This document shows positions 22,313 to 50,623 of a stretch of DNA of 50,623 bases, one piece after another. Both the position numbers and the translations under genes were made by a program. The notes under the pieces were generated by a model, which saw only the letters and a list, made by a program, of their open reading frames with translations, did no database searches and was not told where the DNA came from. This stretch comes from Psammoneis japonica (lineage: Eukaryota), in contig QPGO01000057.1 of the NCBI GenBank assembly GCA_008632985.1, positions 405,346 to 455,968 of the forward strand, given 5' to 3'. Position 1 is the stretch's first letter. Every line of letters starts with the position of its first letter.

Positions 22313-23320
22313 ATGTTGCGCTCACGTTTGGCACCGCTCCTCGTGCTTGTTTTTTTATTTCACAACGTTCTCGTCTCCTTTGGCCTTTCATCGCAAAGCA
22401 GTAGCTCTTCCAAGATGTCGTCTCTTGCCAAACTTGTCACGATGGAAACCTTCAAAGAAGCTTCCAAGCGTTGTCCAATTACATTGTTTGTGTACGCCAC
22501 CATGAATGGATACAAGGGCCCCATTTGCGCAGAAGAATTGGGAATTGAATACAATTACGTTACGATTGATTTCGAAAAGGGACAGCAGCGGTCTCCGGAG
22601 TATCTCAAGATTAATCCAAAAGGACAAATTCCCGCTCTGTACGATGCCGACACGGACGTCATGTTGGCCGAGTCTGCCGCGATACTAGAGTACTTGGCGA
22701 CCAAGTATCACAAGAAAAATCCTAATCTCTTGCCGGATGCTACCACTCATACCAAGGAACACTGGGCCGTCCGCCAGTGGATGCTCTTTAGTGCGACGGG
22801 TCTTGCTCCCGCCATGGGGAATGCCATGTTTTTCAACAGGATTCTCAAGACCAAGGGTGAGGTGAACGAGTATGCCATTGAGCGTTACACCAATCAGAGC
22901 CGTGGGTTATTGGAGGTTTTGGACAAGCAATTGCAGCAAAGTGGCGGACCGTTCTTGTTGGGAAAGGAAATGACGATTGCCGATATTAATACTTTTACAT
23001 ATGGTACGTGAAAAATAGAATTGTGTGGATGTTTTCTCGAGTTCTTTTTTCCTTCTCACACGTTTGTCGTTGTTCTTTTAGCTTCCACTCATTTTTGGGC
23101 CATGGTCAATGTGGACGGCTTGAATAACCTCAAGGCATGGATAGACTTGCTCATGAAACGAGATGGTGTCCAGAAGGGGCTGCAGATTCCCTTTGCCCGG
23201 CCGGGATTCTTTGGACCGCCTTATGCAACCGAAGAGCAAATTCAGGACGAAATCCAGCGGAATGCAGGCATGTTTACCAAGGGTGGCGGGAGTAGTAAAG
23301 ATGAAAAGGCGTCAAAGTAG
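22313..23320 (+). CDS. Glutathione S-transferase (Ure2p/YfcG-like) with N-terminal signal; intron 23004-23081
   Basis: TMNGYK...EELGIEY, YLKINPKGQIPAL, AESAAILEYLA, FLLGKEMTIADI. GT-AG intron restores YASTHFW. Confidence 0.9.
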
Positions 23321-25409
23321 AAAAGAAGATAAATTACTATCGTCTTGTTTCAATCTTCCTTCTTTCAGCCTCCTACTTTATTCGATTCAATCCGGTCTCT
23401 GAGACCATGCTTTTTTCGGGATCGCATCTACACCATAAGCTTCATCAAATCCAACCAAGATGAAATGCCGACATAACAAGCGGCTCTCAGAATGATGTTT
23501 GCGGATCCCTTGATTTTAATTTTCCTCGTCATCATTTCGTGGCACATTGCTGGCCATCGGCCGCATCTCTTCATCCTCACTCAAGCTTCATTGTTGGTGC
23601 CAAGGAATGCAACATTGAAAATGCCAGTTTGAGGCAAAGTGCTCCAGATCATTGCTGCTCATTGCAAAAATGAAAGCATGGATGGATTGGCAGTTGCCTT
23701 GTCCACATAAAGCTTGACCTGCTGCTTTTGGTTGGGGGTCGCTGCAGAAACACAAGTCAGCCATCCGCAGCGTTTCTTTGTGCAAGGTGTGAGTTGCACC
23801 ATTTCCCTGCAATGCAGCTGCTTGGGCAACTTCCAGGCTTTGAAAAACAATCAAAAACTCAAGACATTCTCAATTCACAGCCAGATGATGGCCCACAAGG
23901 AATGCCAGCTTGTTTCTGATGGACGAGTTAAAGGGAAATGTGCTGGCAGAGAAAAAAAGAGCCACTGCTGTGTGATGTGACTTCCTCATTGGACTTTTGG
24001 CAGGGGGTCTCACAGCTGACAATGGCTTGTCAACAACAAGCAACATGTTCAAACTGTGGCTTTTTTGCCACACTATTTGAGCACATCTTGGCTTGGCAAG
24101 CTGCCACAAAATGATGCACAACATTGAGCTGTTTGTTGCAGCTGATGACTGCCATCATCAAGCACAAGACAAACTTCTTGGTGAATCAATCAGAGCTGAC
24201 ATGCACTGGAACTCAGGACTCAGGGGTGCAACACCAACTTTCATTGAGAGCAGCTCATCATTTCTGTCATGGATGGGAATGAAGTGCCAAAAATGGCACA
24301 TGCAAAGGAGGTCACAACGGAAAAAAAAAAAAGAAATGGCTTCTTGCACACTCTTGCACAACAAGAAATGTGTCAAAAAACAACAGCCACAAGCAGTTGC
24401 AGAGCTGATGTTCCTGTGCCTCTTCTCATCTTGAAATCTAACACATTTGCTTCAAAGCATCAAGCCATGAAACCTGGGCTGCAGGGAGCAACACAATCAA
24501 GACATGCACCGGTCATTTTCTAAAATCTGAAAACAATTTTGCTTTTGCATGAGCTCATCTGCACCACATTTGACCTTTCAAAGAGCTGCTGGAGCACACT
24601 GTCTCCAAGTGCAATGCAAGGCCACTTGTTTGTTCCATCAGAGTGACAGATGAGTGCAACAGCACCTGCAGTGGAAAGCTGGAAAAAGAAAAACACATCC
24701 CTTTGGAGCTCCTCAGATGAGTGCTTCAAAAGGACAATCTTGCAAAAAGTCAAAAAAGTGCTGAAAGCAAGGCAGGCTCCCATTGCCAGGTTGCTTGTTG
24801 CCAGTGTCATGATCTCACAGTGTGGTTTTCAGCGCACAACATTTCTTGCGCTCAAGCTTGGAGCTGTGGTGCTCATTTTTTGTTTTGTTGTTCCCCAGCT
24901 TTCTTGCCTCCTTTTTGGCCTTGTTGGCTGACTCAACAAGATGCTGGGAGACAGCAACAACAAATGCAGTCCTGGCAATGAAGGGAACATGTGTGGAGCA
25001 TTTCAAAGAGATCCAGCCCACCATCTGTGTGCACCAGCATCTGTGTCATGACACTGGGTGTGCACAAAAAAAAAAAAAACCAACTTGAAGTGCTGTTGCA
25101 CCTTTGCCCAGCAAACTCTCTCAAAAATGGCTGTTCTCACACTCCCCTGATTGGTGCAATCTGGTTGCCAGCCAAGAAAAAGAGAGGCCAGACCAAATTT
25201 CTTCATGGAACATCAGAGCACGCAACACAGTGATCGACACCTTCTTTCTCATGGTGGTTTTTGTTCTTTTTGCAGATGTCCATTTTTTTGCTTTCAAACC
25301 TCATCAGTTTTGCAGCTGGCAACAACAACATGCCAGCTGCAACAGATGAACATTTTTGTGCTGTGGGATCTGACCTGAACCCCCCCCCTGAGGAACACTT
25401 CTTGTTTCG

Positions 25410-26811
25410 CTGTGAAATGGGGGCACGTTTTCCCTGTGAGAGTGCCCACCCTCTGTCCCCACAAAACCTGCAAATTAAAATCATTTGCATTGTGCCACAA
25501 ACATTCTATTTTGTTGTTTGCATTTAAATCAAATGGTGCTGACAGAGACAACCAGCAGCTGCAGCTTGCTTTCTTGAAGCGCCGCTGCTGGCAGCCACTT
25601 GTTCATTGCCAAAAAGTGCAGAGCAGTCCCACGTTGTGAGAGCACAATGTGGACGAACCAATGCTGCTAACAGGAGCAGCAACATGGACTTGCCGGTGCA
25701 TCTGGTGCCACTGATTCTGGACCAGGCAAGTTTGCAGCAGGACAGCTGCTGGTGTTCCATGATTTGAAGTGCTGCCACTCTGTTCCACCTTGTTCATTGC
25801 CAAAAAGAGTGGAGCCCATTGTAAGAGCACAACACAGATGAACCAACACAACCCACGGGAACAGCAACATGGACTCACCAGTGCATCCGATGCCACTGAT
25901 TCTGGAGCAGGCAAGTTTGCAGCAGAGGTGCTGTTGCTCTGACCCACCTTGTTCATTGCCAAAAAGTGTGGAGCATGTTGTGAGAGCATGGTGTGGATGA
26001 ACTGACATGAATGGCAACACACACACTTGCCGTTGTGTTGGTGCATCCAGCACTGCTGATTTTGCAGCAACGTGGACACCGGTGTGTGGTGTGAGATGTT
26101 GAGCACCCATTCACTTTGCAGTGAAATGGGGGCACATTTTCCCTGTGAGAGTGCCCACCCTCTGTCCACACAAAACCTGAAATTAAAATCATTTGCACTG
26201 TGCCACAAACACTCCATTTTGTTGTTTGCATTTAAATTGAATGGTGCTGATGGAGACAACCAGCAGCTGCAGCTTGCTTTCTGGAAGTGCCGCTGCTGGC
26301 AGCCCCACTTGTTCATTGCCAAAAAGTGCAGAACTTGTTGTGAGAGCACAATGTGGATGAACCAACGCTGCCAACAGGAACAGCAACACAGACTTGCCGG
26401 TGCATCCGGCACCACTGATTCTGGACCAGGCGAGTTTGCAGCAGGACAGCTGCTGGTGTTCCATGATTTGAAGTGCCGCCACTCTGTTCCACCTCATTCA
26501 TTGCCAAAAAGAGTGGAGCCCATTGTGAGAGCACAACACAGATGAACCAACACAACCCATGGGAGCAGCAACATGGACTCACCAGTGCATCCGATGCCAC
26601 TGATTCTGGAGCAGGCAAGTTTGCAGCAGAGGTGCTGTTGCTCTGACCCACCTTGTTCATTGCCAAAAAGCATGGAGCATGTTGTGAGAGCATGATGTGG
26701 ATGAACTGACATGAACGGCAACACACACACTTGCCGTTGTGTTGGTGCATCTGGCGCTGCTGATTTTGCAGCAACGTGGACACCGGTGTGCAGTGTGAGA
26801 TGTTGAGCACC
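25410..26811. repeat. Tandem duplication of a ~700-bp unit (25410-26107 and 26119-26811) with shorter internal sub-repeats
   Basis: gtgaaatgggggcac...gagagtgcccaccctctgtcc at 25412 and 26121; recurring gttcattgccaaaaag sub-motif. Confidence 0.9.
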
Positions 26812-32638: not shown

Positions 32639-33956
32639 TTATTGTCTACCGATCCCGTCTTCCTCTTCTCCTTTTTCTTGTCGACGCACTTCCAAGACGT
32701 ATACTTGCTTGCGTAGCGATCCACCGTCCTCATTGTTATCGTCAATATCATTGTCATTGTTTTGCTCCTCTTGCTCTGATTCAACCAGCGTATACCGCCA
32801 CGCCAAACATTCCCAGTGCATCCTCGCATTTGGATGGCCTCAACGACCGATTCCACCGTGGTAAACATGGTACTAAAGTCAGTTCCAACAAGACCACTCC
32901 CATTACTTTCAATAGCATCATTGTTGTCGCGTCGCTGCAGAGACAGAATAAAACTGGCCTTGGGCGCTGCATCAAAAATGCTTGAAACCGTGTCCAGCAA
33001 TGCTTCCAACATGGACGTAAGCCACACACAATCGCTGGCGACGATCAAGTCTACATTGTTCAAGTAGCGCACATGCTGCAATTGATTATGTAACGGCTTG
33101 GTCCAGTCCAGTGGTGTGGCTGCTGCGAAACCGCGAGTACCACAACCAGCACCAGCAGGAGAGCTCATCGGATAAACCTCCGAGTAAGACGCCAAGGCTG
33201 ACAACCACTCTGGCGGCGAATGCATTGATTCATCATCCCCATCTTCACTCTCTACAGAATTTCTTTTCAAATTGGGCTCGACGGAATGCTCTACGAGGGT
33301 CGGCAGATCGGTGAGCAGTACATGGTTGGTACCTGACGCCGCTGCCAAGCTGATCCCTACCAGACCGACGCCGGCTCCCAATTCCAAAATGTTGGTGGTC
33401 CTATTCATGTAGCCTCTGCATTCTTTCCCCAAAAGTAGTCTTTCCTGCCAGTAAATCAGCCGTGGTGGGTCAGCTCTACTGCTGTTGTTATCACCTGAAT
33501 AAGAATACAACAAGGACTCTAACAACAAGCGTGAGCCGGCCCATACTTGAAAGCCCGTCCGACCAGCAAGTGTGTATCCGTCATCAAAAAAGAAGGGATC
33601 AACCTGATGTTGCTCATCTTCTTGTTCTTTTTTTTATTACGTTTCATACGCATAACCTCATTGGTCAATACATGTTTGTCGCCTCGACTGGCATCCAAGA
33701 CTCCGACTGATCTGTCTCGGCAACGAAATGCAAGGCGACCTGGTGGAGATGGTACCGTACAATAAAATTCAATACGACCTGGATTTTCATACTCATCATA
33801 TGTATCTACATCTTGCAGCTTCTGTTCTCCACATTGAAAGTTGGATGGGATGCAGCGGGGTTGCAGCTTGGAATTGTTCTTGTTGTTGTTGCATACAATC
33901 ACGTCATGACAGAGCACGGTATGGTGCTGGGTAGCAGTGGATGTTGATGGTTCCAT
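32639..33956 (-). CDS. SAM-dependent protein-lysine methyltransferase (METTL21/family 16-like); two apparent frameshifts (~33630, ~32820)
   Basis: DPFFFDDGYTLAGRTGFQVWAGSRLL, ILELGAGVGLVGI, LLTDLP, LDW, IVASDCVW. Confidence 0.85.
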
Positions 33957-34547
33957 GACGTCTCTTTCTTCCTCTAACTCTCTCTATTTCTATCTGTAAA
34001 GTTACACCGCGCTACTCTGAAACAACCCAACGACAGTAACAACACAAGAACAACAACAACTCTACTCTCTACTCTCTCTAGACCCTACGATCGTTTGATC
34101 TTTCGTCGACTTCGAGATGTTGTGTGTTGTGCTTTTTACTTTGTGAACGAGCGCTCGCGCGCGACAACATGAAGTTGAAGCAGCACAACTTCCTAACTCT
34201 GAAAAATTTTGCGGGAAACACTCTCCACTCTGTCGCGCGCAATGGCTTAGCTGGTACTGAAGCTACGTAGAAACCTACGTAAATGAGAGTTTTTTCCAGA
34301 TCATGCGCGATGACGGACCAAGAAAGATGGCGCAACGTGATGTCGTCATTCGCTTGAGTTCGGACGGACGGCGACTATCTTTTGGTGTCACAATACAGTA
34401 GTTGCAAGCTGCTGCAATTCTCATTGATTGTTTCGAAGGCTTCTTTACCTCTCGACTCGAGTCTGAGCTACACGTATCCGTATACCGGCATTGAATTCTG
34501 TCTGGTACACTTCCCACTTCCCTTGAATCACTCTATTACTCTGTACA

Positions 34548-35887
34548 ATGCGCACTCTTGTTCCCGTTGCTGTGGGTTTGGGGAGTTTTTCTCTGGCTCT
34601 GAACGCTGCAGTAGTAGTCGATGCGTTTGTACATCCAACCGCACTGTTGCATCAGAGCCGTCCCCAAAGAAGAACTGCGGTTGTTAATGCCGTGATTAAT
34701 TCCGCTAGCGACACGGATACTACCGTAGTCGCCTCGAGACCCACAAAGACATTGGGGCTGTTAACCTTTGATTTAGACGACACTCTTTACCCGCTAGCAC
34801 AAGTCTCTGAAGAAGCCAACGCTGCGTTTGCAAGGGCCATGGAGAGTTACGGTTTTGAAGGAATCAACCCCGTTGACATTGTAGAGACAGGAAAGGAGAT
34901 TCGAGAAGAAATGGATCCTGCCGAGGCGGCTGTTCTAACGCATACCGAAGTCAGGACGCTGGCGATTCGAAGGGCAATGGAAAATGTCATTTTTGAACGA
35001 AAGCTACAAGCCTGCGCCGATGACTGGGCCACGCCGGTTTCCAGCTTGGCACCTCTTGTCGTTGAGAATGCTAAAAAGTACGTCTTTGTCCAGTTTTTTG
35101 TGATTGTATTTGTTCGCAGTCTCACTCGCATATCCTCTATCCTACTCGTTTCTCTTTTTCCAAAAGGTGGGCCCGCAACGCCGTGTCACCCTCTTTGGTA
35201 TCTTCGGTGTTGAACGCATGGGAAATGGAACGACACCATGCAGCGGAACGAAATTTGTATCCCGAGGTTGTAGAAGTCTTTGAGCAAATTAAAAAGGACC
35301 ATCCCGGTGTCATTATTGGAGCAGTGACGGATGGACGGGCCAACCCTCTCTTCATGACCTTTACACTTGCACCGTTTTTTGATTTTTGCATGAGTTGGGA
35401 AGACGACCAGGGAGGGAGACGAAAGTTCTTTCAAGAACTGGACAATGTGGACGGAAACGCGGAATTGACGTGGATCTACGATGCAGCATACGCAAAGTAC
35501 AAAGAACTCGCCGAGGCTGCGGCCGCCTTGAAACGGAAAAAGGACGGAAGCGACGCTCCACATGAACCATTTGCCAATGGTGAACCAGTTTGGATTCATG
35601 TAGGAGATGACTTGGCGTATGATGTTGGTGGTAGTTCCGCTTGTGGAGCAAAGACTATCTTGGCGGAGCTTGCCGAACAGTATGGACAAACTGCAAGGTT
35701 TCGCTTCGACAATGACGATAAATCAGTAGGAGCCGCATCGTGGTCCACGTCCAGTCAACGAGAACTGGATAAGCGGCGCATTATGAATGAAGCTGCCCAA
35801 GAACACGTCAATGAAAAGATACTCTTTATGAGTCAGTTGCCAGAGGCGATACAGAAGATCCTGGAGAAGACTAGAGGAGTAGTATGA
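34548..35887 (+). CDS. HAD-superfamily hydrolase, probably plastid-targeted; intron 35078-35166
   Basis: Motif I TFDLDDTLYP, VTDG, motif IV WIHVGDDLAYDV. Presequence VDA-F. GT-AG intron restores frame. Confidence 0.88.
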
Positions 35888-36456
35888 GTCTCGGTGCTAC
35901 CTTGTCGAATGTTTTCGGTGATTTGGATTGGATTGGTAGTTGATAATAAAGAAAATAGTGCCAGATTCAAAGAACTATGTACCAACATTTCTTGCAAGTC
36001 ACTTACGTTATCATGCCATCACGATCTTGGTACTGTAGATCAGCAGAACTCCTATGTCAAGAGTGGCGTGTTCCATTCACATTATAGATAACGACCCGCA
36101 CGCGACAACCCAGGAGCCCTCGCATCAAAGACAGGCAACGGATGACATGGCACATGATCTGCTACATGAAATAGAGGACATTGTGACGTCCAAAACGTTG
36201 CAGGAGCGCCTTATACATCGCATTGAAGGCACTTATCGACTGCCATTTGGAAAAATCAGGACGACAGCAGGTGCTCCAACTGTCTGCTTTTGCGTCGCGT
36301 GACAGTTAACGAGGAACAACATAATGCGGTCTAAAGGTTAAAGGCATAACATTTATTACATTTTGCAGCGCCGCGCACAAATTGTCTAGATAACACTATC
36401 ATCCAATGTCTCGGCATCAACTTGAATTCTAATGCTACTGCATTTGCTCTTGATAT

Positions 36457-38000
36457 TCACTCGACATCACTGGATGGTTCCACAATGCCTCCAGCCTCTA
36501 CGTCGGGAGTAGCAGCATCTTCATTGCCATCCGTAGCTTGCCATTCGGTTTTCAGGTTGGCAGACTCGTCTCCATCGCTTCGTACGGGCACTGCAATTTC
36601 GTTACGCCGAACAATTGGAATAGTATAGGGCGGATTGTACTGGAACACAACATGCGGCACAACAGCTCCATGTGGGACATCAATCTCTATGCCATCCAAC
36701 TCCAATCGTGAAAGGAGCGCATCCTTTTGACGGCATACTTCACCCTTGGTGACAAATCCTGTGAATCGCGCTACAGCCAGTCGGGCCGGAGGTACATCGA
36801 CAATCTTGACGGCACCCTTTTCATAAAAGCCATTAGCATCTTCTTGCAAAGGATCCGGGAAACCCTTCTCGTCGCTCTCACTGTCGTTTCGGAGATAAAA
36901 GCGCATTTCACCCAATGATGTTGTGGCCACCGGCGTCGTCATGGCCATGGTCTTGCCCTCATCATTGGCTCCAAACAGATAGGCAGCAAGCGTATTGAAG
37001 GCGGCTCCTCCACTTGCCAAATCGTCTACGGAGTAAGGCTCATCCACCTTTGCCATGTTGGTTGAGGCCACCACGTATCCTTCGTATTCACGAATCTCAT
37101 AGCCCTCTCCCTCTTGTACCACTTTATAAGCCGGGCCCACCAAACCTTGCGGTGTTTCCGAAAAGATGTTCTTCGCTTCGATTCCCACGCTTTCAATCTG
37201 CCGGGTGAGTCGCTTTGGAATGCGAGAAGGGTCCTGCAAATCTCCTTGGAGCAGTTCGAGATTGCGCCTTGCTTGATTGGAGATTGCATTGAAAATACTG
37301 GATCCCACCTTCGGAAGCAATGTTGGTAAATCGGACGGGGGTTGTTGCGATTTCTGAGTGGCCGCCGCGATTCCCGGTAATATATCATTCGTCAACTGAC
37401 GAGCCACGGCTCGAGTTCCGTCTTGGAGTTTCTTGCTTTTCGGTGTGAGGAGAGAATCGATCTATAAAATGAACGTGAAGAAAAGTAGAAACAGGCGACG
37501 GGAGGGAAACGGTAAGCAGATAAACGAAGAAAAACATTGATGACAAGGAAATACTTCCGGCACCGGATCCCATCAACACAGTGCAGCCGCAACGAGAATG
37601 CAATACCCACCTTTCCATCTCGGAGTGCAGCTTGTACGCTATCGCGAATTTCTTCATTTGCGCTCAAGAGATCATTAAGAAGGATTTGTCGTCGAGCAAG
37701 AGATGTGGTTGGATCTAAAAGCTCATCCAAACTAGCTTGCCACGAAGCCTCTACTTTTTCTTCTTGACCAAACATCTCTCCTTCGGATTCTTCTTCTTCT
37801 TCTTCAAGGCTATCGGCAAAGGCAGAGAAGGCGTCTGCGCTTGCAGTAGCACTGCCACCACTGCTACTCTCCGACAATGCCACCAAGGACGAAACAGCAT
37901 GGCCGTGACGACACTGCCCCGTCGTTGATACAATGCCAAAACCTGTCGCTGGTTCTAAAAGCAACAACAATAGCGTCGTTGCACCAAACAGCAACTTCAT
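36457..38000 (-). CDS. SOUL heme-binding family protein, probably plastid-targeted; intron 37462-37610
   Basis: YEIREY, AFNTLAAYLFGAN, MAMTTPV, QYNPPYTIPIVRRNEI. Presequence ATG-F. Intron restores frame. Confidence 0.9.
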
Positions 38001-41000
38001 GCTGTTTCTTCTCTGTTTAGTTTGATAATGACGGAGGAACTTAATCTCACAACCACACAACAAGAAAAACTCAGGCGAACTGAAACATAGATATGAAAAG
38101 CGACTTTGAACCTAAAACGAGATGTGGGCAGCCACCCACAGATTGGAAGCGGTGTTCTTCGAGAGAAAGATCCTCCTGCCTCGCCTCCTGCCACAAAAGA
38201 AGCGAGCGATGGAGTAGACTACTTGGCAACTTATTATACGCAACGCGCGCACACGGGTGACGGCTGCGGCAGTTTCAGTTCGGCATGTTGAAGTTGAAAG
38301 TTGCGGATCGGGGGAATTCACCCCGGATGTGAAACCCCCCAGTTTTTCTCGCAGTTTCGGCGCACAGAGGCGGAGGTTCGTCAACGATGTTGTTGACACA
38401 AACAGAGCACGATTTGAGAAAACACTGTTTGACTGATGAACAAGCAACAAATGACATGAGCTGATGCTCATCCAAGTTTCGTTTCTCCAACGACATGGCA
38501 GCCACATTCCTCAAAAACAAGCTGCAAAAAGAAGCTGCCGGCATGGCCCAGTGTTGTGCGCTGCTCTGCTCTGCCAGTCAATCAAACCTTGGGGCTCTCC
38601 ATTGAGTGGCATGTTTAGTCCTTGGCTTCAAAATCAACACACTCAACTCTTAAACCTGCCCCACCCTTTCTGCACCAAAAAGAAGATGTGCTTTGTCAAC
38701 AATCTTTCGGGGGGCACTTGGCGCAACGTGCTCCGGCCCCACTCACGAACCAAAGCGTGCACAAAAATGACACCCACACAATTTCCGCATGGTCTCTGAC
38801 TTGCAAATGAGCTTTCACCAACAAAAGCATGGGGATTCATTGAAGGTCAATGTTTTGCAATGCCGGCAAGTCAAGATTGGTGCCAGCGCTGCAACATCGT
38901 CGTTGTTCTTGTGCGCTGATTTTTTCATTGTGACGAACGAGTTGCAACACAAAAGGATGATTTTTGCCAAACACACCATTGCCATTTGTGGGTTGACACA
39001 AAATGTTTCTTCGTGCATTTTGCAGCAGTGGTCTGCTTGCACAAGAATCTCTGCAATGTGGGTGCTGTTGCACACTCAGCATCGTTGTTTCTGCAGAATT
39101 TTTTTGACACACATGATGAAACAAATGTTCAAATGTTCATGCTCTGATCAAACACAAAAGCCAGAGTGCACAAGTGTTTTCAATGAACAGCCTCAACATG
39201 TGAAGCTTGCACATGAATTGTGCTCAAAAGGGAGCATCGTTTTGTGCGTGAGCTGGGGCTGGAGCACTTCTGGTGTGGGGGGAGTGGCGGCCATTGAGAC
39301 CTGCATGTGTCAACAACAGACAAAACTGTTGGAGTTTTTTTGCTTGTCAGCTGACACATGCTTTGTCTCACTGACCCCAAACTTGCCGCACAGCTTTCAA
39401 ACACATTTCTCAAGAAGTGAGCACAAGACCGGCAACCCTTTCAAGACACAACAATGTTCCTTGTCACCTTCCATCAGCATTGCTGCCATTGACTTCTCCC
39501 TTTCTTTGTTCTGGCGGGTGTCATCAGCACCCTTGCTGAGCCCATCCTCTTCTTTCTTGGCAATTTCTTCTGGGGCAATTCTGTTGCATGAGATGTTTCC
39601 ACCCCATCTCAACCTCAACAGTGCCGGTTGAGAGCCAGCAGCTGCAACAATCTTGAAGTGTCTCTCCTTTGTCTTGACAAAGAAACTTGCCAACATCATT
39701 TTAACATGGCAAGCAGCACACAAAAACATTTTCACAGCCATTTGTTGGCAGCATTGTCAACAGGCCGAGTCACTTGAAGATGGGCACAACTTTTGAGCTG
39801 TTGCACCACATGACACAACTTGTTTTTGCAGAGTTGTCAGCAACCTTTTTGAGAGGATGCTCTGGCAATCACTTGGCACTTTTTGCACAGAAGCTGCATG
39901 AAAGCCACTCGTGCACATTCCTCACAGATGCAGGACAATGAAACACAGAAAGTGTGGCATTTCTCATCATGAGACAATGCCCAGCAGCAGCGAGCCAAAA
40001 CGGCATCATTTGCATCTTTCCACAGCTCCTGTTTTGCTCACCCAATTGCTTCAAAAGGGTCAGGGCAAGCTCACAAGTTTCATGTTGCCACAATGGAGAA
40101 CAAAGCAACCGCAGGTTGTTTTTCATTTTGCTGCTTCAGAATGAGGCACAACAGGTTGTGTCAAGGTGTGCGAGTGTGCTGGTTGTGGTGATGGCCAGTC
40201 TGGAGAGCAGCGCATCCACCACCATGGCGGCACCAACATCCTTGTTGATGATTTGAATGATGCTGATTTGCACGCCGTGTTCTCACGTGCTCTCCATTGC
40301 TTGCTCTGAACCAAGTGCTCTTTCCACCAACTCCAATGACATCAAAACTGCAGCTGGTGGAGAGTTCTGTGAAGTCCCTTGAACTCAGAAATGACAGTGT
40401 TGTGGCCCACAGTTAAAACACACTCAACATGTCCTCAATCACAACTGTTGCAAGCATCTCATCACAACTCACAGGCTTTGCATCCTTTGTGACAAAGTCG
40501 AGCATGTCACTTGCCAGTCGTTCACGGGAGCTTGGTTTGCCGAGCTTGAAGCTGTTGCGGGAGCAGGCAGAAGTCATTGGACCAGGCCCTGGAGCAAGTT
40601 TAGTTGGTGCCAGCTCTTTGGCAGAGTGGAGAGGCCCCACCAGTGCAAATTGGGCATGGCAAGTGGCATGTGATTGGATGGATTTTGATGGATTTTGATG
40701 ATTTGCGGAAGAGCAACAGGGCACAAAATTGACGCTGGATTGTTGCAATTGCCAAACTGTGTTGGCTGCGCGCAGCAAGTGCCGCAGGTGCTGAAAAGTT
40801 GATGAAGAATTGTCAAGGTGTGCAGCAGAAAACTGCTCCCTGCCATCACCTCTGCAGCAGCTCTGTTCAATCTAATCTGGCACAAAGCCTTGCAAATGCC
40901 GGCAACACTGCTTTTTTGACAGGTCATCATCTCTGTTGGAATCATTTGAGGTTCTGCCCGGCAGCTGGATCTCATGCAACTCCACCAATCCCTTGTGTTT

Positions 41001-41601
41001 GCATCTCAAAAGCTGGTTTGTTGCACCCTCCAACCCACCACTGTGAGTGCACACAACAATTTCTCTCCCAGACAATTTCTGGCATTCATCAAAACCCTTT
41101 TCCAGGCCGTCCCTTCCTGTCTGCAGTCTCCAGCATTGCAACATCAAGTTCCATGCTGCAGGTGCCCCGCGCAGCAAATCAAAATCAACTCTGCTCTCCT
41201 CTCTCATTTCTTGAAATGCATCCAAATTTTTGGCACGCGGCTCACTGAACCAACGGGGTGTTTCCCGTGAGCAGCATTGTTGGGTGCCAGCGCAAGTGGA
41301 GTGCCTGACTCTGTCCCACCTCCACCTGCCTCTCCAAGTTGAGGAACATCATCTGTCACCTTGCGTGTGCATTGTCGCCAACACAATGGCAAACCACCAC
41401 ACGAATGTCCACCGAATTTCTTCCATTTTGCAGCAGCTTCTCTGTTTTGTGATGAAGCAATGCTGCAGTTGCACATGTGCCACCCGGGATGCAGACTCAC
41501 AATGGCCTCCCACATCCACACTGCTTCCAGAATGAAACGATTTTGCTGGCCAGTCGCTGCGCACCAGGAACTGCCGCCCCACATGCTCCCCATGTGGCAC
41601 C

Positions 41602-41994
41602 TGATGGGTTCCAGTCCTGGGTGGGACTCCGTGTGACATTGGGCCCGCAGAATTCTGCGTGCAAGCTCCGCAGCAAATTTGTGCTGCAATGAAAACACAA
41701 ATGATTGCCAACAGAAAAAGAGGCAATTTTACGAACGTGTCTCCTCCTTCATGCTTGGAGCACATCATTGACAGTTTGCCCGGGTGTGTTCTTCAGACAT
41801 CAAAGAACACACCCAGAGAACTCTTGTTCTCACAAATGTTGAAAACAGAAAGCCTTTGGCTTTGCAAAACAGGGAGCATGAAACAATTTCGTAGAATGTG
41901 AGAAATGCACGTGCGCGACATGCGACGCGATCCAAAAAACTGTTGATGTCACAGTGCAGCAGTGCAAGGTCCCACCCAGAGCTGGAACGCGTCA
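41602..41994. mobile_element. MITE-like element, copy A (~393 bp)
   Basis: Imperfect ~25-bp terminal inverted repeats (tgatgggttccagtcctgggtgggac ... gtcccacccagagctggaacgcgtca). Homologous, in inverted orientation, to 45391-45787. Confidence 0.8.
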
Positions 41995-42639
41995 GCTCCA
42001 CTTTTGCTCAGAAAAAATTTCCACTCGGTTGATTTTGTAGAAAGTGAGGCAACTTCTTTGCACACAACAAAACCTCTTCCTCTTTGATGCTGGCGGGTCT
42101 TTGCTCTTTTCAAGCTGTTGCTGAACTCGGCTCATTTTTTCTGATCTCAGCTGGGATGCAAAACATGGGCACTGTCTGGAAACCAAAGCAGGTGAAATGT
42201 GATGAAAGCTCCTGACAGCAAGACACATGATGCTTGGTCAATGATTCATTGGAGCATCCTGCCAACTGACTGGCCAGCAGCTTTGTTGAAATGCAGCTGC
42301 ACACAGTGAGCAGAAATGCCAGCAATTCAATGACGAGCTGAAAGAGGTTGTGTTGCTGACAGTCGGGTGTGGCAATGGACAATGTCAACAGCTGTTGCAC
42401 CTCCTGCCAGCAGCTCTCTACAGTGGAGTGGAGGTGCTTCCATGAACGCCACTTTCAACTTGCTGGTGGTCTTCACCATGGTCGATGTGTGCGTTGCACG
42501 CATGGTGGGAAACCATGCCATCTGCTCTTCTCCTGTGTCATGATGTCATTGGACCAGGAAAAGGAACCCGGATGGACCTGGGTTCCTTTTCACAACTGGG
42601 GTTGCATGTTTTTTCATGCTTGATTCTTCTCGGCAAGGA

Positions 42640-42915
42640 TGACAGAAATTGAAGGCAAATGGCAAGAACTCAAACAACAACTCCTTGCTGCTGTCTAAAC
42701 AGCAGATGAGTCTCCGCTCAGAGACCGTCACAGGAGCCGAAAGACGTGCAAGTCGGCACAATCGGGCCACTGTCATTGTTCTTGTGAGCCTTGTGGCTCG
42801 AAAGCAAACTGCATCGCGCGCGAACACGTGGAACCAAAGCACACAAAACTGTGTGCGGTGAACTAAACAGCGCGCAACATTTCACGCGCACCTGAATCCT
42901 GTTCAAATCCTGTCA
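42640..42915 (-). repeat. 3' LTR (276 bp, TGACAG...CTGTCA)
   Basis: Inverted termini, follows the polypurine tract, aligns with 49778-49947. Confidence 0.92.
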
Positions 42916-45390
42916 CTCCCCAGTTTGCTTGAGGAGCCACAGAAACAGATTCGACTTCGGATGGAATGAAGTTCCAGAACATGAGGGGGCGGAGAAGGTC
43001 CCAGATTTGGGAGTCACCCCAATGCTTGCTGAGAATGTCAGCAGGGTTGCGGGAGCCCTCGATGAAGTGGAGCTCAAGGTGACCAGAGGCAACTGCCTCA
43101 CGCACACGGTGGAACAACAGTGCAGTGTGTCGCTTGTGCAACTTGGAGTGTGGGATGGTGGCACTGTCTGCAACAACATGTGACTGATGTTGCGGATCGG
43201 GACGCCAAGGTGTCGCAGGGTGATGCGCAGGTTGACAATCTGCTTGACACAAGTCCTTGCGGCAACAAATTCAGACCCGCAGGTCGCAGTCTCCACGGTG
43301 GCTTGCTTCTTAGAGAACCAATCAGCCGGGAATTTGTTGAGGAAGTGGAGCATTCCCATGACAGAGCGTCCAGTGAGCATGCAATGGTGCAAGTTTGCAT
43401 CGATGCAGTGGGTGGCAGTGACAAACTTGCCAAGGGGTGGTGGAGCGTCCTTTGGGATCATCTCTTCTGCTTCGCCGCACACGGAATGCATCCATTCACA
43501 GGCCGGAGCAGGGAGATCCGAATGGTCGGGCTCTTCTGTGCGAATGCGGAGAGCGCCGTGTTGCATCTTGGAGAGGCACCCACAGACGCGTTTGGCACGA
43601 TCCAAGTGGCCTTGACGGGGCGCAGCTCGGAAGCTGGAGAGTGACATGACGGCCGTGGCAATGTCAATTCGACCAAGGGACACTGCCCATTGGAGTGAAC
43701 CAACAAGAGACTGGAGCTGGTGAATGCCATCGGGCCCCAGCAGTTCGGAAGTGTCCAGTTCGGGGTGGTCACCCTTCTCCAGAGGTGACAGGGTGTTGGT
43801 GGCAGGTTTCTCCCCAAACAGTCATGCGCAGCTGTCGACCATGCGCTTGATGCACTTGCGCGGAGACAGGCACAAGGTGCCATCAGGATCCCGGGAAAAG
43901 TCGCAGCCCAGATGGAACTCAATCGGTCCCGCACCCTTGAGCTTGAACTTGTGCTTTTCCGTGAGAGCATCAACGAAAGATTGAGGGTCCTTCATGGCAA
44001 TGGCGAGGTCATCCACACAAACGGCAATGTGTTCGCAGTGGTTGCCGTTCCTGTGCATCCAAATGTCGGGTTCGGCACGGCAGGGGAAGAAACCTTCAGC
44101 TCGCAGGCAGTCGGCGAAGTGCTCGTGCCAGCGGAGACCGGAGCTGCGCAGTCCATGCAGGGCCTTGTGGTTGACAAGGATGTGGCCTTCGAGTTTGCCA
44201 AATTTGGGTCCGGCTGCAATGTAGAGCTTCTCCTTGGTGGTGGCTTCAAGGTGGGCATTGCCAATGTCAGTGGCCCATGTCTCCAACTCGTTGAGTTCGG
44301 ACAGGAAAATCATCAGCCGAAGGCCATGGAGGGAGACCACTCCGGAGCAGACACTGTCAATGGGTGCGTCCGTGAGGTGCCCATCGGCTGCAAGTCATGC
44401 CTTGTGGCAACCGTCGTGTTTCACGTCGCACACTGGGTGCACTCGGATCTTCTTGTGTCCCGCAGGAGGAGTGGAAGACTCGGAGGGCCCGCAGTCATGG
44501 AAGACTTCGTGTTCCTCGAGTTGGTCCATCTCGAGATTAGTTGCGTCTCCCCATTTGCGGTTGCCGTTGCGTTCGTCCAGTGACATGGCGTGTTTGTAGT
44601 TCCAGGGAACTTCGCATCCGCACTTGTGGCAAGGTGCAGTGTGGAAGGAGTGAAGCTTGGCTTGGTTGGCCATGCGGAACAGCTTCTTCTGGTGCCTCGC
44701 GATGGTGCGGAACCGCTTCCAGCCATCAGTGTCGAGAAGTCCATTCTCTTGTGCATGGATGGTGCAGGTGACAGGGTTGTCCTTGGCGATGATGGCAAGA
44801 CGCTCGGACGTGATCTCCCCACTTTCCCATTCAAGCACAATGTTGTGGCTTGAGCCTTTCCAGGTTGGGTCATGAGGCTTCAGAGGTCCTTCGTGTGACA
44901 CAATGCGCCAAAATTTCCAAACAGCAGTGTCTTCGTCTTCTTGCTCAATGTGATTCATGATGTCGTTGCAGGCAAGGACTTCCTCGCATTCATCATTGTT
45001 GACAGAGCAGACGAACTTGGTGAGCTCGGGATTGCCGTTCACTTTCCATTCATGGTCTTCGATGGCCTTGACGATGCCAGCTCTGTGGCATTGTCCGTCC
45101 TCTTGTGGCTGCATGAGGAAGGTGCGTCTGATGATTTCTTGCGGATCGAAAACTGGCATCTTGGGTGTCCTGATCTCCCCATCAGGTGAATCGACGGAGT
45201 TGTCGTCATGGCGAGATTTGATGATGGGTTCAGGTGGCTCCCCATCAGGAGGATCAAGATGCAGGTTTTGAACGGCAGGATCAGTGGCAGCAGATCGTAC
45301 GTTGGACTGGCAGAGGATCTTCTGAGTCTCGTCAGAGAGAATCTTGAAGGTCATCTGGTGGCCGACGTGCTCAGCAATGCCAACAAAGTG

Positions 45391-45787
45391 TGACGTGTTC
45401 CAGCTCCAGGTGGGACCTCGTGCTGCTGAACTGTGACACAATCATTTTTGTCATCCGTCGCATGTTTCACACGCACATTTCTACGTGTTCTGTTGTAAAA
45501 AATTGTTCCACACTGCCTGTTTTGCGAAGCCAAAGGCTTTCTGTTGTCTGCACTTGTGTCAACAAAAATGCGCTGGGTGCATTCTTTGATGTCTAAAGAA
45601 CACACCCGGGCATGCTGCAAAGAATGCACTTCAAGTGTGGAGGAGGAGACACGTTCGCAAAATTGCCTCTTTTTCTGTTGGCGATCATTCATGTGTTCAT
45701 TGCTCAACAATTTTACTGCGGAGCTCGCACGTAGAATTCTGCGGGCCCAATGTCACAAAAAGTCCCACCTGGGACTGGAACCCGTCG
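45391..45787. mobile_element. MITE-like element, copy B (397 bp), inserted in the copia integrase C-terminal region
   Basis: Imperfect ~25-bp TIRs. Removing it plus 2 bp restores ...ELHG-H-FVGIAEHVGH in frame. Confidence 0.85.
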
Positions 45788-48700
45788 CGTCCATGCAACT
45801 CACCGGATTCGGACGGCCAATCGGAGTCATCGAGGTGGAAGCACACGGGTTCCCACCAGTGAAAGCGAAGCAATGGGCTGATGTCCGGGGTGGAGCCAGT
45901 GAGAGTCTCGAGGGGCATGCGCCAGTGGAGACGTGGGGACGCTGTGTGGTTGAGCATGAAGCACACGTGCATGAGTGCCAGCAGCCATGTGTGGGCAGGC
46001 GAACCAAAACGATCCATGACAGTGTTCGCCATGCACTTCACGGTCTGGTGTCGACGTTCGGCAAAGTTTTGGTGTTGCTGGTGAGGCTCACTTTGCCAGC
46101 TGGAGACAAAGAGGGCTCGTAGGATCCCGAGCACCTTGTTGCTGATCTCAACTTGAGCACGGTCGCCAATGAGTTTGGATGGAGCACCACGCTCACGGAT
46201 CTGATCCTCGAGTGTGTTGACAAACTCTTTGTCCGTTTTGGTGCCGCAGATGTCAGTGACGGCAGACTCGGTGCCAACAAACAGTTGGGCGCTGGTGCAA
46301 CCAGAGTCAACGGCTGGGGTGTCGGCATGAACGGTGTCAGTGGCGACAGGCTCATTGCGGCGGTGCACATCAAGGGTGGGGTTGGGTGATTTGTGGGCCT
46401 TCCCCAAGGTGTGCACCAGCGGGCATGCGGGCGCACTGCATGGTGCAGTCGAAAGTGCGACAAACCACATCGGCAGGTTGGAAGCCAAAGTGAGGCCGTG
46501 TAGATGACACTCGCAGAGCACGTCATCGTTCGGAATGAGATGGTCATCGAGGGCGGATGCGTGATCGGCAGACAAGGAGGCGGACATGATGGTCTTGTTG
46601 ACAACGACACGATGACGGTGGTTGCCGCACTCGTCAAATGGGTTGGCAGTGGGATCGTCCTGTGGGTCAGAGATCGCGTCGCACCACTGGTCGTCGTCAG
46701 TGACAGAGTGATCGAGGACGGAAGGATCCCATGTGTCATCACCGGCAAGGATGACATGGGGCAGGGTGTCCCATTCGGCGTCAGCGCAAGGTCGCATGGC
46801 AACACAAGGCAGGCCGCCCTTGATGTCAATTGGGATGACATGGCCATCAGGGGTGGCAACACGGTGCAAGCCATTGGGCACCTTGACAGAGCAATCGTTG
46901 ACATCCTGTTTGCACCATTCGAGCTGGCCGCAGGAATGAATGGTCTTGCCCTTTCCCGTGCATGCGTGCTGATGGAGGATGGCAATGACGGGACCATGCT
47001 GTGTCTCAATGATGGCACCAGCGGTGACAATGGGGATGTCCAACAATTGATGGTCGTCAATGCCCTGAACGTCGACTTGGCGAGAGGTGCATGCAATGAC
47101 GCAAACGTCATCGCCAGCAATGCCGCCGTTGGCCCCCACGATCGACTAGAGCACCAGTGCGTGTGGAGCGATGAGTGGAGGCAGAGCAAATGACATTGTG
47201 GTCATCAACGCAGCGGCAAGTGCGGCCGTTAAGTTCTGTGTCATCGGCAGGAGCGGGCAAGGTAGAGGGAGTGGCAGATGGCCCCGGTCGACTAGCGTTG
47301 GGGGCTTGGTTAGGAGACAACAGGCATTGCAGATCACCAGGTGGCAGTGGCTTGCGCTTGGTGAGGTGCACCAGGATGGGATTGTCTGAAGTGGCATCCA
47401 CATTTGGAGTGGGGTCACCAGAGTCAGCTGGAGTCGTGTTGGACAAGTTGACATCACCGTCACTCCCAAGGCGTTGGTCATGAAGGTTGGCCGTAACGGA
47501 CTCATGGCAGTTGCTGGCTCGCGGGTTGCGGGGAGGCGGATGAGAATGCTCAGGGATGATCGCCTTGGAGGAATGGGGCAACGAATCCCAAATCCGTTGG
47601 TGGTCGGGAGGGAGACGTTTCCATTGGTCACCGGTGAGGCTGGGACCGCGGGTGCAGGCAGCATTGGCCTGAAGGATGTCAATGTCACTGTCAATGTCGC
47701 AGAACACATCATCGGACGGTTCCTCGGAGCAGACGTCGTGTGTGTGTGTGGCGCGTCGGGGAGCTCCAGGTGTCGTCTTGGGTTGAAACGCACTGTCGCA
47801 TTGAGCTGCCGCGGAGAGGAGCAAGCCACAATGTTGATCGCATGTGAGGCTCTTGCCACTCTGCGTGCGATGCTGATCAGCTTGGTTCTTGACAGCACGG
47901 AGTTCCTCGACAGGATGTGCGGCATTCTTGAGCATGACGCACTTCTGTCCTTCAGAGAAGTGGTCGCTGGCCAGGATGAGTGCCTCGTGCTTGCGCAACT
48001 GATCTTGCCAATGAAGGATGAACCCGTGGGTCGGACCTTTCCAAGTGCCATCACCAAGACGTGCGGTGGTGAGGCACGTGAGCAAGGTGGAGGACTCGAC
48101 AGATGCGCGGGTGGAGGCGAGCACATGCTCGGACAAGGCGCGGCAGATGGTCTGGGCGTCAGAAGACCCCACATTTTCGCGAATGAGAGCCTTGCCCTTG
48201 TCGGTGAGAAGGATGCGTTCGAAGACAGCGAACATGCACTTTTGTTGTTCAGCAAAGAGCAGTTTGTCTTCAGGGCTGGTCGGTTTGTACGACGAGTCTA
48301 GAGTGCACTCGACGTCTTGGGCACGGGCTTGTGCCACAAGTGAGGTGTGCCAAGTGTGCCACTGCTTGTCGGATTTGAGAGCCGTGAAAGCGGTGGGGTC
48401 ACGCTTGATGCCTCGCTTGAAGTCTCGCACCGGGTCGCATGCCTTGGTCGGGTTGGTGACATGCGGAGGTGCGAGGGGCGAGCTGCCGACAGACACAGAA
48501 GACATGCAGTCGGGGCTGAGGCGGCAGGCAAGGAACTCCTCATGCGTGAACAACGAGGAGTCATTGGCAACGTCAAAGACCTTCGTGTGCTTTGACAATG
48601 CACAGACTGATCAGAGCTGCTGACATGTTCTTATGACCGCGGGGCAAAGGGATCACATTGGTGCCGTCATCGCACTCAAGCGAGTCGATTTGGGATGGCA

Positions 48701-49777
48701 TGAATGTGAACAGTTCTTGATGCGAGTCCGTGCCGTCGCGTGGGTCAAAGCCAAACAAAGAGGGATCCCAGCACCTTGGGCAAGCACGGTTCCAACAACA
48801 TGCTCAAAACCATCGGTTTGTTGCTGACGAGTGAGAACCATGGCAGACAAAAGTGGTGTCAGGACAAGCGATTCTTGTTGGGATGCGAAGGTGGACTTGA
48901 AACTTGGGTGAGAACAGACTTGACTTGAAACAGACTTGACTTGAAATCTTGAGCCACCTTAAAATCAGAAGTCGCCGGGCTGTGCCATCCCGTTCGTTGT
49001 CAAGTGCTAAACTTCCCATCCGGTCCGCAGAGTTGTGCCGGCACGTCCGAACCCGCAGCCAGCGGCACTTTGGGTTGCTTGCGAGCGGAGCAGCGGGTTG
49101 CAAACCCCTGCAGGCAAGCTGACTGGAGGTGGACAAGACCCCCGAACCGTTCTTGTTTTACATCGGTTGGATTTCCCGATCAGGCTGGCCAGTTGACGCA
49201 GGCATTGGGTGCTGTGGACGAACGAACAAACGCGGGAAAAACACCCTCGCCCCAATGCAGGCTGCAATCACGGCTGCTTGCTCTCACAGTCATCCTCGTG
49301 GACCTGGCAGAACTGCAGAGCACCAGTGGTCCGGGGTGGATCAGGTGCAATGGACTCGGTGTGCTTGTAGAGTGGTGGCAAAGCCGTGGTTCAAAGAGTG
49401 GGTGCAAGTTCTTGGCTGAGAGGACATGCACACACGTGTGTCTTCAGCGACGAAGATCCTTGAATGTGCAGGGTTCTTGACCATCAACCGTTGAATGGGT
49501 GTGCAAAGTGATGAGGATCAAGGGTGGACTTGGACATGACCGTTGATGTGTGTCTTCAGCGATGAAAGGCAGCACAATCAATCCAGACACACAGCGGCAA
49601 GGAGACTTGACGGTGACGTTAAATTCCTGCCGATGCCTGGCATTGCACGCGTGCAGACTTGCCGATGTGTGTAGAATGTGTGCGGAGGTCCACGCAGAAT
49701 TGAAATGGCATCGTCAGCAAATCAACGACGATGATGGCAGTTGCTCAATGGGTTGACAATGAGCAAGACTGTCAATC

Positions 49778-49947
49778 TGACAGAAATTGAAGGCAAATGG
49801 CAAGAATTCAAACAACAACTCCTTGCTGCTGTCTAAATGGCAGATGAGTCTCCACTCAGAGACCGTTGCAGGAGCCGAAAGACATGTGAGTCGGCACAAT
49901 CGGGCCACTGTTGTCATTCTTGTGAGCCTTTTGCGCAAATCCTGTCA
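49778..49947 (-). repeat. 5' LTR (170 bp, ~106 bp shorter than the 3' LTR)
   Basis: Same termini; ~150 bp colinear with 42640-42791 at offset 7138. Confidence 0.9.
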
Positions 49948-50623
49948 AAGGAACCCAGATCCGGGTCCCATGTTGGGCATGCATGAATTTGACTCATGGC
50001 AGTGGAGGGTGCGGCTGTGAGACCCGGCTCTCAAGCAACTTCAAACTGGCATGGCAGGCGCACTCTGGATGAGCACACAGACCACCGCTGCCGTGACAAC
50101 ACGGAGAAATTGTCAAAAAACCGCCGGAGCCAATGACGACATTGGCGTGGCAGATGAGGTGTCCAAACAATCTTTGTTTCTAGTCCCATTGCCATGGCAG
50201 GTTTGTTGCTCCATCTTTTGCTTGGGGTTGTAAAGGGGCCATCAGAGAACGGCAGCGAGTCGAGTTTTGTGCACACACACACCCATTGCGCCCGTTTGTG
50301 ATGCCATGATTCATGCCAATTCTTCACATGCCCACCACCAGCCGGATTTCCAGCACCCGCTGAGTCAAACTCCAAGTTTGACAAAAAGAAAGCAAGTTGA
50401 AAATCAAAATGGTGTTGTCAATGTGTCCAAGGCTCGCCACTTGTTGTTTCACTCAACTTTCTTGCCGCCGCAGCCGGCTCTTGTTGTGTCAGCACATTGA
50501 CAAATCCAATGTCATCATCACATCGTCATCACGTCATTGCGCCCATTTGAGCAATGGCGCTGACCAGACGAATCTCATTCAAGACTTTGATGAAGCAACT
50601 GCAATGCATCCAGCCAAGCATTC

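Follow-up and report, generated by a model that had tools for sequence, protein, structure and literature searches.

General features of the element

The window analysed here is a stretch of 50,623 nucleotides (nt) of Psammoneis japonica DNA (contig QPGO01000057.1, positions 405,346 to 455,968 of the forward strand), and all coordinates below are counted from its first letter. It carries, at 42640–49947, a single long terminal repeat (LTR) retrotransposon of 7,308 nt with its genes on the minus strand. The element and the DNA around it contain very few TA dinucleotides and are rich in CA and TG, a pattern that we consider best explained by hypermutation directed at TpA on both DNA strands. A 156-nt direct repeat (42640–42795 and 49778–49933, 91% identity) is the sole long repeat pair in the last 10 kb of the window and defines the LTRs. 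The features of the element, including its target-site duplication (TSD) and open reading frames (ORFs), are the following.

42635–42639: left TSD, AAGGA, read from the sequence and identical to 49948–49952
42640–42916, minus strand: left LTR of 277 nt, the 3' LTR of the minus-strand element, with ends TGACAG...CTGTCA
42917–42922, minus strand: purine run GGGGAG directly upstream of the 3' LTR, a putative polypurine tract
42913–43821, minus strand: C-terminal pol ORF without tyrosine, closed on its upstream side by an in-frame stop; no Pfam match, putative RNase H by gene order
43822–44394, minus strand: reverse transcriptase ORF (Pfam RVT_2, E 1.4e-17)
44395–45441, minus strand: ORF between the integrase region and the reverse transcriptase
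45391–45786: nested repeat of about 400 nt, 80% identical to 41603–41994, in inverted orientation
45697–47145, minus strand: integrase-region ORF of 482 amino acids with 0 Tyr, 29 His and 20 Cys; 588 homologues
47108–48610, minus strand: ORF of 500 amino acids with 1 Tyr; no Pfam match, putative gag by position
49778–49947, minus strand: right LTR of 170 nt, the 5' LTR, with ends TGACAG...CTGTCA
49948–49952: right TSD, AAGGA, read from the sequence

By its LTR pair with TSD, its RVT_2 domain and the position of the integrase region upstream of the reverse transcriptase, the element is classified as a Ty1/copia (CoDi-like) LTR retrotransposon. A Pfam search of its five ORFs returned RVT_2 only; gag, integrase and RNase H domains were not found. 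The homologues of the integrase-region ORF reach 56–60% identity at best, and the named ones are diatom proteins, one of them titled 'Integrase catalytic domain-containing'. An earlier reading of the same DNA, made from the letters alone (the sequence-only reading), had taken the element for a single insertion, and the matching 5-nt TSD, the matching LTR ends and the copia gene order between the LTRs agree with this.

Judged by its sequence, the element is dead. A frameshift parts the first ORF from the second, and there are also two in-frame stops, the nested repeat and a deletion that removed from the right LTR about 107 nt still present in the left one, after column 156 of the LTR alignment. 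Contigs built from a sequencing run, X1 (described below), skip both copies of the 400-nt repeat, with joints 45388 to 45790 and, at about single-copy depth, 41591 to 42002. Some copies or alleles thus lack these insertions, suggesting that the repeat is a small non-autonomous mobile element.

Differences between the two LTRs

The LTRs were compared in a 156-nt gap-free alignment with an offset of 7138. There are 14 mismatches, 10 of which form five adjacent CA/TG swaps. The swaps and the two CG/CA differences are located as follows.

Swap site 1: CA at 42700–42701, TG at 49838–49839
Swap site 2: CA at 42729–42730, TG at 49867–49868
Swap site 3: CA at 42749–42750, TG at 49887–49888
Swap sites 4 and 5: CA at 42774 and TG at 42777 in the left LTR, TG at 49912 and CA at 49915 in the right LTR
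CG in the left LTR, CA in the right: 42715–42716 and 49853–49854
CG in the left LTR, CA in the right, second case: 42745–42746 and 49883–49884

The remaining mismatches are a C/T difference at 42669 and a G/T transversion at 42793. Both CG/CA differences are read as ordinary CpG decay in the right LTR, with CG taken as the starting state. Swaps 4 and 5 (42774–42778, TCATTGT versus TTGTCAT) can also be aligned without any mismatch if two 3-nt indels are allowed, so that these two depend on the alignment and the other three are unambiguous. Re-reading of the letters confirmed the five swaps, the two CG/CA changes and the C/T difference at the positions given by the sequence-only reading, and added the transversion and the shortening of the right LTR.

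Each LTR carries both kinds of product, CA and TG. The classes of pyrimidine–purine steps in the aligned LTRs are TG/TG 12, CA/CA 12, CA/TG 5, CA/CG 2, CG/CG 4 and TA/TA 1, in line with the earlier remark that several CpG are intact in both LTRs and a single aligned TA survives. The complete left LTR contains only two TA (42696 and 42864). In 200,000 simulated trials with 13 random transitions in the left LTR, the number of CA/TG swaps never reached five, and it reached at least three in 0.045%.

Loss of tyrosine codons

The coding regions were examined by placing 120 homologous proteins on the element by tblastn, a column counting as conserved tyrosine when 10 or more homologues cover it and at least 70% of these have Tyr. 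None of the 15 conserved Tyr (TAY) codons has been kept: there are seven His (CAY), six Cys (TGY), one Phe (TTC) and one Trp (TGG) in their place. With the threshold lowered to 50%, the 19 Tyr columns contain nine Cys, eight His, one Phe and one Trp. Among the other conserved columns, 238 of 271 are retained. The five ORFs together encode only three Tyr in 1827 amino acids; in 240 homologues the median tyrosine content is 3.6%, and none has less than 1%.

TA-poor domains of the window

The window contains three domains that are poor in TA and rich in CA/TG: from 1 to about 4,500, from about 23,520 to about 29,800, and from about 38,240 to the window end (50623). Per-kb odds ratios in these domains are 0.01–0.15 for TA, 1.44–2.05 for CA/TG and 0.03–0.88 for CG; in the last of them (38240–50623), which includes the element and its flanks, the TA ratio is 0.01–0.14. 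Most 1-kb intervals of the domains have 1–5 TA, against 30–70 in most intervals of the gene blocks. The gene blocks that lie between the domains have long ORFs, a CG ratio near 1 and TA ratios of 0.44–0.82 in 26 of 27 intervals, the exception being the interval 23001–24000 at a domain edge (0.28). By hand count, 21 of the 51 one-kb intervals fall within the thresholds (TA at most 0.43, CA/TG at least 1.52) used for the chlorarachniophyte Bigelowiella natans by Mettrop et al. (bioRxiv 10.64898/2026.01.13.699255).

The TA odds ratio of the element is 0.08, with 30 TA in 7308 nt versus 761 TA in 18,001 nt of gene DNA. TA is equally scarce in the flanks beyond the TSD, with two in 42000–42639 and two in 49948–50623. 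The edges of the domains are sharp to within a few hundred bases: several TA are found at 38215–38237, followed by two in the next 1,460 nt. These borders track genes rather than the ends of the element. The other two domains look older and have CG odds ratios of 0.03–0.3, versus about 0.75 in the copia element.

CA/TG swaps also separate other repeats of the TA-poor domains. The pair of 400-nt repeats shows 10 swaps in 75 mismatches and the tandem pair at 25406–26811 shows eight in 41, versus none in 60 mismatches of a coding tandem repeat that lies in a gene block and serves as a TA-normal control. This control (16530–17050) consists of tandem 102-nt coding units, about 85% identical and rich in Ser, Asp and Tyr, within the ORF 14987–17407. 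The tandem pair at 25406–26811 is a duplication of about 700 nt, 93% identical, with further sub-repeats of 190–230 nt. It is spanned by long open frames that are probably spurious, their length being due to the near absence of TAA and TAG stops.

Proposed process and chemistry

The process that best explains the element is very probably a regional loss of TpA at the DNA level, acting on both strands and matching the type of hypermutation described in B. natans. The element would have inserted once, at AAGGA, on the minus strand of a diatom chromosome. After duplication of the LTR, and most likely after integration, almost every TA would have been turned into CA or TG, an A:T to G:C transition at either position of the palindromic TA being the same change on one strand or the other. 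Near-complete conversion with an independent choice of strand in each copy would leave about half of the ancestral TA as discordant CA/TG between the LTRs. The two CG/CA differences would represent the ordinary, slower decay of methylated CpG; rough hand arithmetic on the odds ratios puts TpA loss at about seven times the rate of CpG decay. The process would be regional, covering the whole transposon-filled island with its flanks and other repeats and stopping sharply near genes.

Given such a process, there is about an even chance that its chemistry is adenine deamination in TpA, on double- or single-stranded DNA, by a deaminase resembling ADAT2 or TadA. Since nearly all changes are transitions, deamination, which turns A into inosine that is read as G, is favoured over an error-prone polymerase. 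The same regional hypermutation may instead have passed through a modified thymine, for example an oxidised T mispairing with G, or through error-prone repair synthesis, which we regard as possible if rather unlikely, the modified thymine being the main alternative. Chemistry on T and chemistry on A would leave an identical footprint, TA to CA or TG on both strands, and the TA-poor domains coincide with CpG-poor, presumably methylated DNA. Hydroxylation of thymine at TpA is known in kinetoplastids and dinoflagellates. On the other side, a broad-spectrum polymerase agrees poorly with 17 of 19 Tyr columns changed to His or Cys (and one to Phe), that is, with transitions almost exclusively, and AA/TT is not depleted. 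No evidence of thymine modification in diatoms was found among the titles returned by a literature search.

Three further processes were considered and discarded. Mutagenesis of WA motifs (W being A or T) of the polymerase-eta type is ruled out by the near-exclusive transitions and the undepleted AA, and GC-biased gene conversion by the GC content of the older TA-poor domains, which is not raised (0.43–0.51). Fungal RIP (repeat-induced point mutation) is ruled out by its reverse direction, as TA is lost and CA/TG gained here.

The TA that survive have a distinct context. In the TA-poor domains (n = 73), 42 are in YTAR (Y, pyrimidine; R, purine), 29 in mixed contexts and two in RTAY, and the corresponding numbers in gene DNA are 150, 570 and 343. 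Relative survival in YTAR, mixed and RTAY contexts is thus 0.28, 0.05 and 0.006, which fits two independent half-sites and may reflect the specificity of the mutating agent. The single tetranucleotides are TTAA 20, CTAA 10, TTAG 8 and CTAG 4, while ATAN and NTAT are nearly extinct. A rule for the choice of strand ('A is hit when a pyrimidine follows') was tried on these data. The surviving TA fit it, but the Tyr codons after a pyrimidine (seven Cys to five His) do not, and only an effect of context is retained.

TA or CG as the ancestral dinucleotide

The swaps could in principle derive from CpG, if deamination of 5-methylcytosine, on opposite strands in the two LTRs, had turned a methylated CG into TG in one of them and into CA in its partner. 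Such decay does operate here. It accounts for the two CG/CA differences between the LTRs, three of the 16 conserved Arg CGN codons have decayed, and at 44120, 47410 and 48491 the TG or CA of this copy stands against CG in contigs of the family. The older TA-poor domains are also very CpG-poor, and by hand arithmetic on class counts CG decay could explain about three of the eight swaps of the tandem pair 25406–26811. The rates nevertheless make this origin of the LTR swaps very improbable. With four LTR CpG intact in both copies and two changed in one, about 0.12 discordant double changes are expected versus five observed (P ~2e-7). The conserved Arg CGN codons (13 of 16 retained, a loss of 0.19) and the LTRs (a CpG loss of about 0.2 per copy) give similar rates, from which CG ancestors predict 0.11–0.125 discordant swaps, with a Poisson probability of at least five of about 1e-7 to 2e-7. 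A CpG origin also leaves unexplained the loss of all conserved Tyr codons and the near absence of TA.

TA had been proposed as the likelier ancestor by the sequence-only reading on the counts of intact steps. The conversion of Tyr codons to His and Cys, the retention of 13 of 16 Arg CGN codons and the presence of TA at two sites in family contigs point the same way. By these rates and these other sites, descent of the swaps from TA is strongly supported. With near-complete conversion and free choice of strand, five discordant sites would correspond to about 10 ancestral TA in 156 nt, or 6.4 per 100 nt. The LTR-like repeat pairs of 13 related metagenome loci have 3.3–11.6 TA per 100 nt; the loci screened for this control were of at least 5 kb, and three of the 13 may be one element in three samples. 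The four diverged pairs among these show two CA/TG swaps in 58 mismatches.

There is no third LTR copy within the window. A scan of metagenome contigs for the pattern of the LTR start, with Y/R allowed at CA/TG steps, gave no match, and there was no same-family copy among the shorter proteins searched, where no hit exceeded 73% identity (over 27% of the query).

Strand, timing and dating

Both strands were hit, His (sense T to C) and Cys (A to G) being about equal (7:6 in the stricter set of columns, 8:9 in the wider). Editing of the RNA or complementary DNA (cDNA) intermediate in the particle, by an ADAR-like or other deaminase before integration, is the alternative on which this bears. In principle, differences between the LTRs could arise from a deaminase that attacks double-stranded cDNA when this is almost complete, and enzymes of the ADAR type prefer U before the edited A, as is noted in the B. 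natans preprint (bioRxiv 10.64898/2026.01.13.699255). Against this stand the equal use of the strands in the conserved codons, the domain edges that follow genes and not element ends, and the equal TA poverty of the flanks, the nested repeat, the tandem repeat and the single-copy DNA of the island. We consider editing before integration highly unlikely. Editing of the sense RNA alone is excluded by the hits on both strands, and the discordant LTRs and the TA-poor flanks outside the TSD likewise speak against it; the argument against ADAR-type editing made in the sequence-only reading therefore stands.

The same reading had placed the mutations after insertion. The discordance of the LTRs shows that they are later than the existence of two LTR copies. 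That they are also later than integration is most likely, as suggested by the region-wide pattern: the TA-poor flanks and single-copy DNA, the tandem repeat duplicated in situ and the borders aligned with genes.

Dating by LTR divergence would overestimate the age of the element, as had been proposed. The overall divergence is 14 of 156 positions (9%), and outside TA- and CG-derived steps it is two of 156 (1.3%), which makes the apparent age about seven-fold too high. Nearly all TA have been lost, yet only these two positions have changed by other routes.

Family copies in sequencing-run contigs

The contigs of run X1 were built from exact 31-letter words, and the differences between window and contigs given here are the best-supported 40 of about 1000. 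The run contains 81% of the sampled words of 33000–42999, and 17,315 of its contigs could be placed on a 20-kb stretch. Summed word depth is 60,000–154,000 over the element versus about 58 over single-copy genes, a sum that is not a copy number. In genic positions, 11 of 5,974 differ between contigs and window.

Two sites show TA in other copies of the family. At 42859–42860, in the part of the left LTR that is not shared with the right one, this copy has TG and 57 X1 contigs have TA, with 166,717 of 172,637 of the summed depth. The codon at 46618–46620 (minus strand) is CAC (His) in this copy and TAC (Tyr) in all 22 family contigs, by a G to A difference at 46620; at this codon (element position 3328), 82% of 119 homologues have Tyr.

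The X1 contigs at single-copy depth (about 53–58) were compared with the unique stretches of the TA-poor domain.

39151–39897: 1 letter different
40764–41168: 2 letters different
39956–40380: 5 letters different
38283–38816: 6 letters different
42037–42463: 10 letters different

The TA-poor sequence is thus present in the reads and not only in the assembly. An artefact of sequencing or assembly, in which a long-read base-caller had turned modified TA of silenced DNA into CA or TG, is barely credible. Strand-dependent miscalls at a palindromic modified site would give random CA/TG and could make identical LTRs seem different, and the records of the runs do not state the type of library. Against this, X1 contigs of about 58-fold depth match five TA-poor single-copy stretches to within 1–10 letters each, other copies of the family in the same run have normal TA calls (42860 and 46620), and the in-frame stops, frameshift, nested insertion and LTR deletion are as expected of real decay.

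A CA/TG swap between window and X1 contig is also found at 40129–40130, at single-copy depth, and possibly represents the other allele.

A second run, X2, is recorded as 'DNA?' and contains spliced joints at 35077–35167 (89 nt, GT..AG) and 37461–37611 (149 nt, CT..AC, a minus-strand intron). This run resembles RNA and reveals two introns in host genes; that it is nearly absent from the TA-poor domain does not show that domain to be silent.

Points that weigh against TpA hypermutation

Several observations speak against the regional loss of TpA proposed here, or limit what can be concluded from it. The ancestry of the five swap sites is argued from rates and from other sites in the family. These five sites are absent from the best-supported 40 of about 1000 differences, so that the family is not uniformly unlike the left LTR there; this weighs little. 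At 47988–47989, all 11 family contigs have CA where this copy has TG, which requires either two steps, CA first to TA and then to TG, or an ancestral TA that the contigs no longer have. Run X1 may derive from the same sample as the assembly, and its library type is not on record. The contexts of the surviving TA suggest a one-way bias of about 4.5-fold in mixed contexts, under which five discordant sites would need about 17 ancestral TA in 156 nt, a high number; the Tyr codons that follow a pyrimidine do not show a bias of this size. Only one of 80 related metagenome loci (L030, TA odds ratio 0.27) is even moderately TA-poor, and the process is not general in diatoms. Finally, the chemistry is deduced from the footprint of the mutations.

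Host and generality

The host gene for isopropylmalate synthase (18640–19917) has named matches in diatoms only, at 64–71% identity. By this sequence comparison, the host is a diatom, and the protein database searched contains no sequenced species closely related to it. The 80 related metagenome copia loci have a median TA odds ratio of 0.72, and many are CpG-poor and rich in CA/TG. In locus L030, the region of about 2000–3500 has a TA odds ratio of 0.11 over 1.5 kb, yet encodes six Tyr in 300 amino acids; this locus may represent an initial or incomplete instance in a different organism.

If regional TpA loss is the correct explanation, TpA-specific hypermutation of mobile DNA would gain a second lineage with this host, which would be its first diatom. 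An LTR retrotransposon would also serve here for the first time to read such a case, its pair of LTRs being a built-in clock and strand marker. A process common to stramenopiles and rhizarians would point to an old and unrecognized chemistry of genome defence. The dating of LTR divergence, the annotation of transposons and the finding of genes all fail in such islands: tyrosine-free proteins are hard to recognize (one of the five ORFs has a Pfam match), and the scarcity of TAA and TAG stops produces spuriously long open frames. At the same time, saturated islands offer many sites for working out the context preference of the enzyme.

We tentatively extend this further, with somewhat less than an even chance of being right, and propose that TpA-directed hypermutation is a conserved defence of algae of the stramenopile–alveolate–rhizarian (SAR) group rather than a peculiarity of one chlorarachniophyte. 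In the diatom it would be tied to silenced, CpG-methylated islands, saturate several times faster than the decay of methyl-CpG and spare YTAR. It would then be an A:T-directed mirror of RIP, carried out by a sequence-specific DNA adenine deaminase or a thymine modifier.

Comparison with known systems

The element resembles the CoDi elements of Maumus et al. (2009, PMC2806351) in having the gene order of Ty1/copia, short LTRs and a TSD of few nucleotides, and in that its closest named relatives are from diatoms. TA-directed mutation is not described in the available parts of that paper or of the paper on diatom DNA methyltransferases (PMC9998398), and a description of TpA-directed loss in diatoms was not found in the literature searches, where the sole match was the B. 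natans preprint. The element is set apart by a best protein identity of only 56–68% to anything found.

Transposable elements of diatoms are methylated, and diatom DNMT4, which is related to the fungal RIP enzyme, is without known function according to the methyltransferase paper (PMC9998398). As in the decay of methylated CpG in diatom transposons, CG to TG or CA changes are present in the element and in the island. Unlike the process seen here, CpG decay cannot remove TA, and by the hand arithmetic above it is roughly seven-fold slower.

Editing of retroelements by APOBEC (on cDNA) and ADAR (on RNA) is strand-biased, precedes integration and leaves the same changes in both LTRs. The diatom element shares with such editing the clustered inactivating transitions in an LTR retrotransposon; it differs in that the changes fall on both strands, are unlike between the LTRs and extend into the flanks.

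RIP of ascomycetes changes C to T mainly at CpA, thereby creating TpA, and needs duplicated sequence. The process in the diatom is similar to fungal RIP (RIPCAL paper, PMC2621366) in being dinucleotide-specific and limited to transitions, in acting on both strands of integrated repeated DNA, and in destroying transposon genes and making LTR dating unreliable. Unlike RIP, it destroys TpA and creates CpA and TpG, and it also affects the single-copy DNA of the island.

The closest match is B. natans. From mutation-accumulation lines, Mettrop et al. (bioRxiv 10.64898/2026.01.13.699255) report a rate of about 6e-7 mutations per site and generation in an integrated region of giant-virus origin (186 kb) and in a virophage region (25 kb). 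In some lines only, 230 of 231 hypermutations were A to G or T to C, all on TpA, giving TpG or CpA. Low-TpA genes were enriched in reverse-transcriptase and DDE domains, and an ADAT2-like DNA adenine deaminase was proposed by these authors; diatoms, LTRs and retrotransposons are not mentioned in the available text. Both systems share A:T to G:C transitions located at TpA with both products, TpG and CpA, and blocks of foreign or mobile DNA with a footprint of low TpA and high CpA and TpG beside normal host DNA. The B. natans process acts on DNA already in the chromosome. Here, LTR discordance places the changes after duplication of the LTRs, and the TA-poor flanks, single-copy DNA and in-situ tandem repeats argue for action in the chromosome.

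The two cases differ in host, a diatom (stramenopile) and not a chlorarachniophyte, and in degree, the TA odds ratio being 0.01–0.14 at saturation here versus 0.45 in the B. natans giant-virus region. The targets are high-copy transposon islands here versus single-copy viral inserts there, and CpG depletion accompanies TpA loss in the diatom, unlike in B. natans. The B. natans mutations were measured in mutation-accumulation lines, and those of the diatom are deduced from sequence. The diatom case would best be filed as an extreme, saturated diatom member of the same type of TpA hypermutation, and not as a separate kind.

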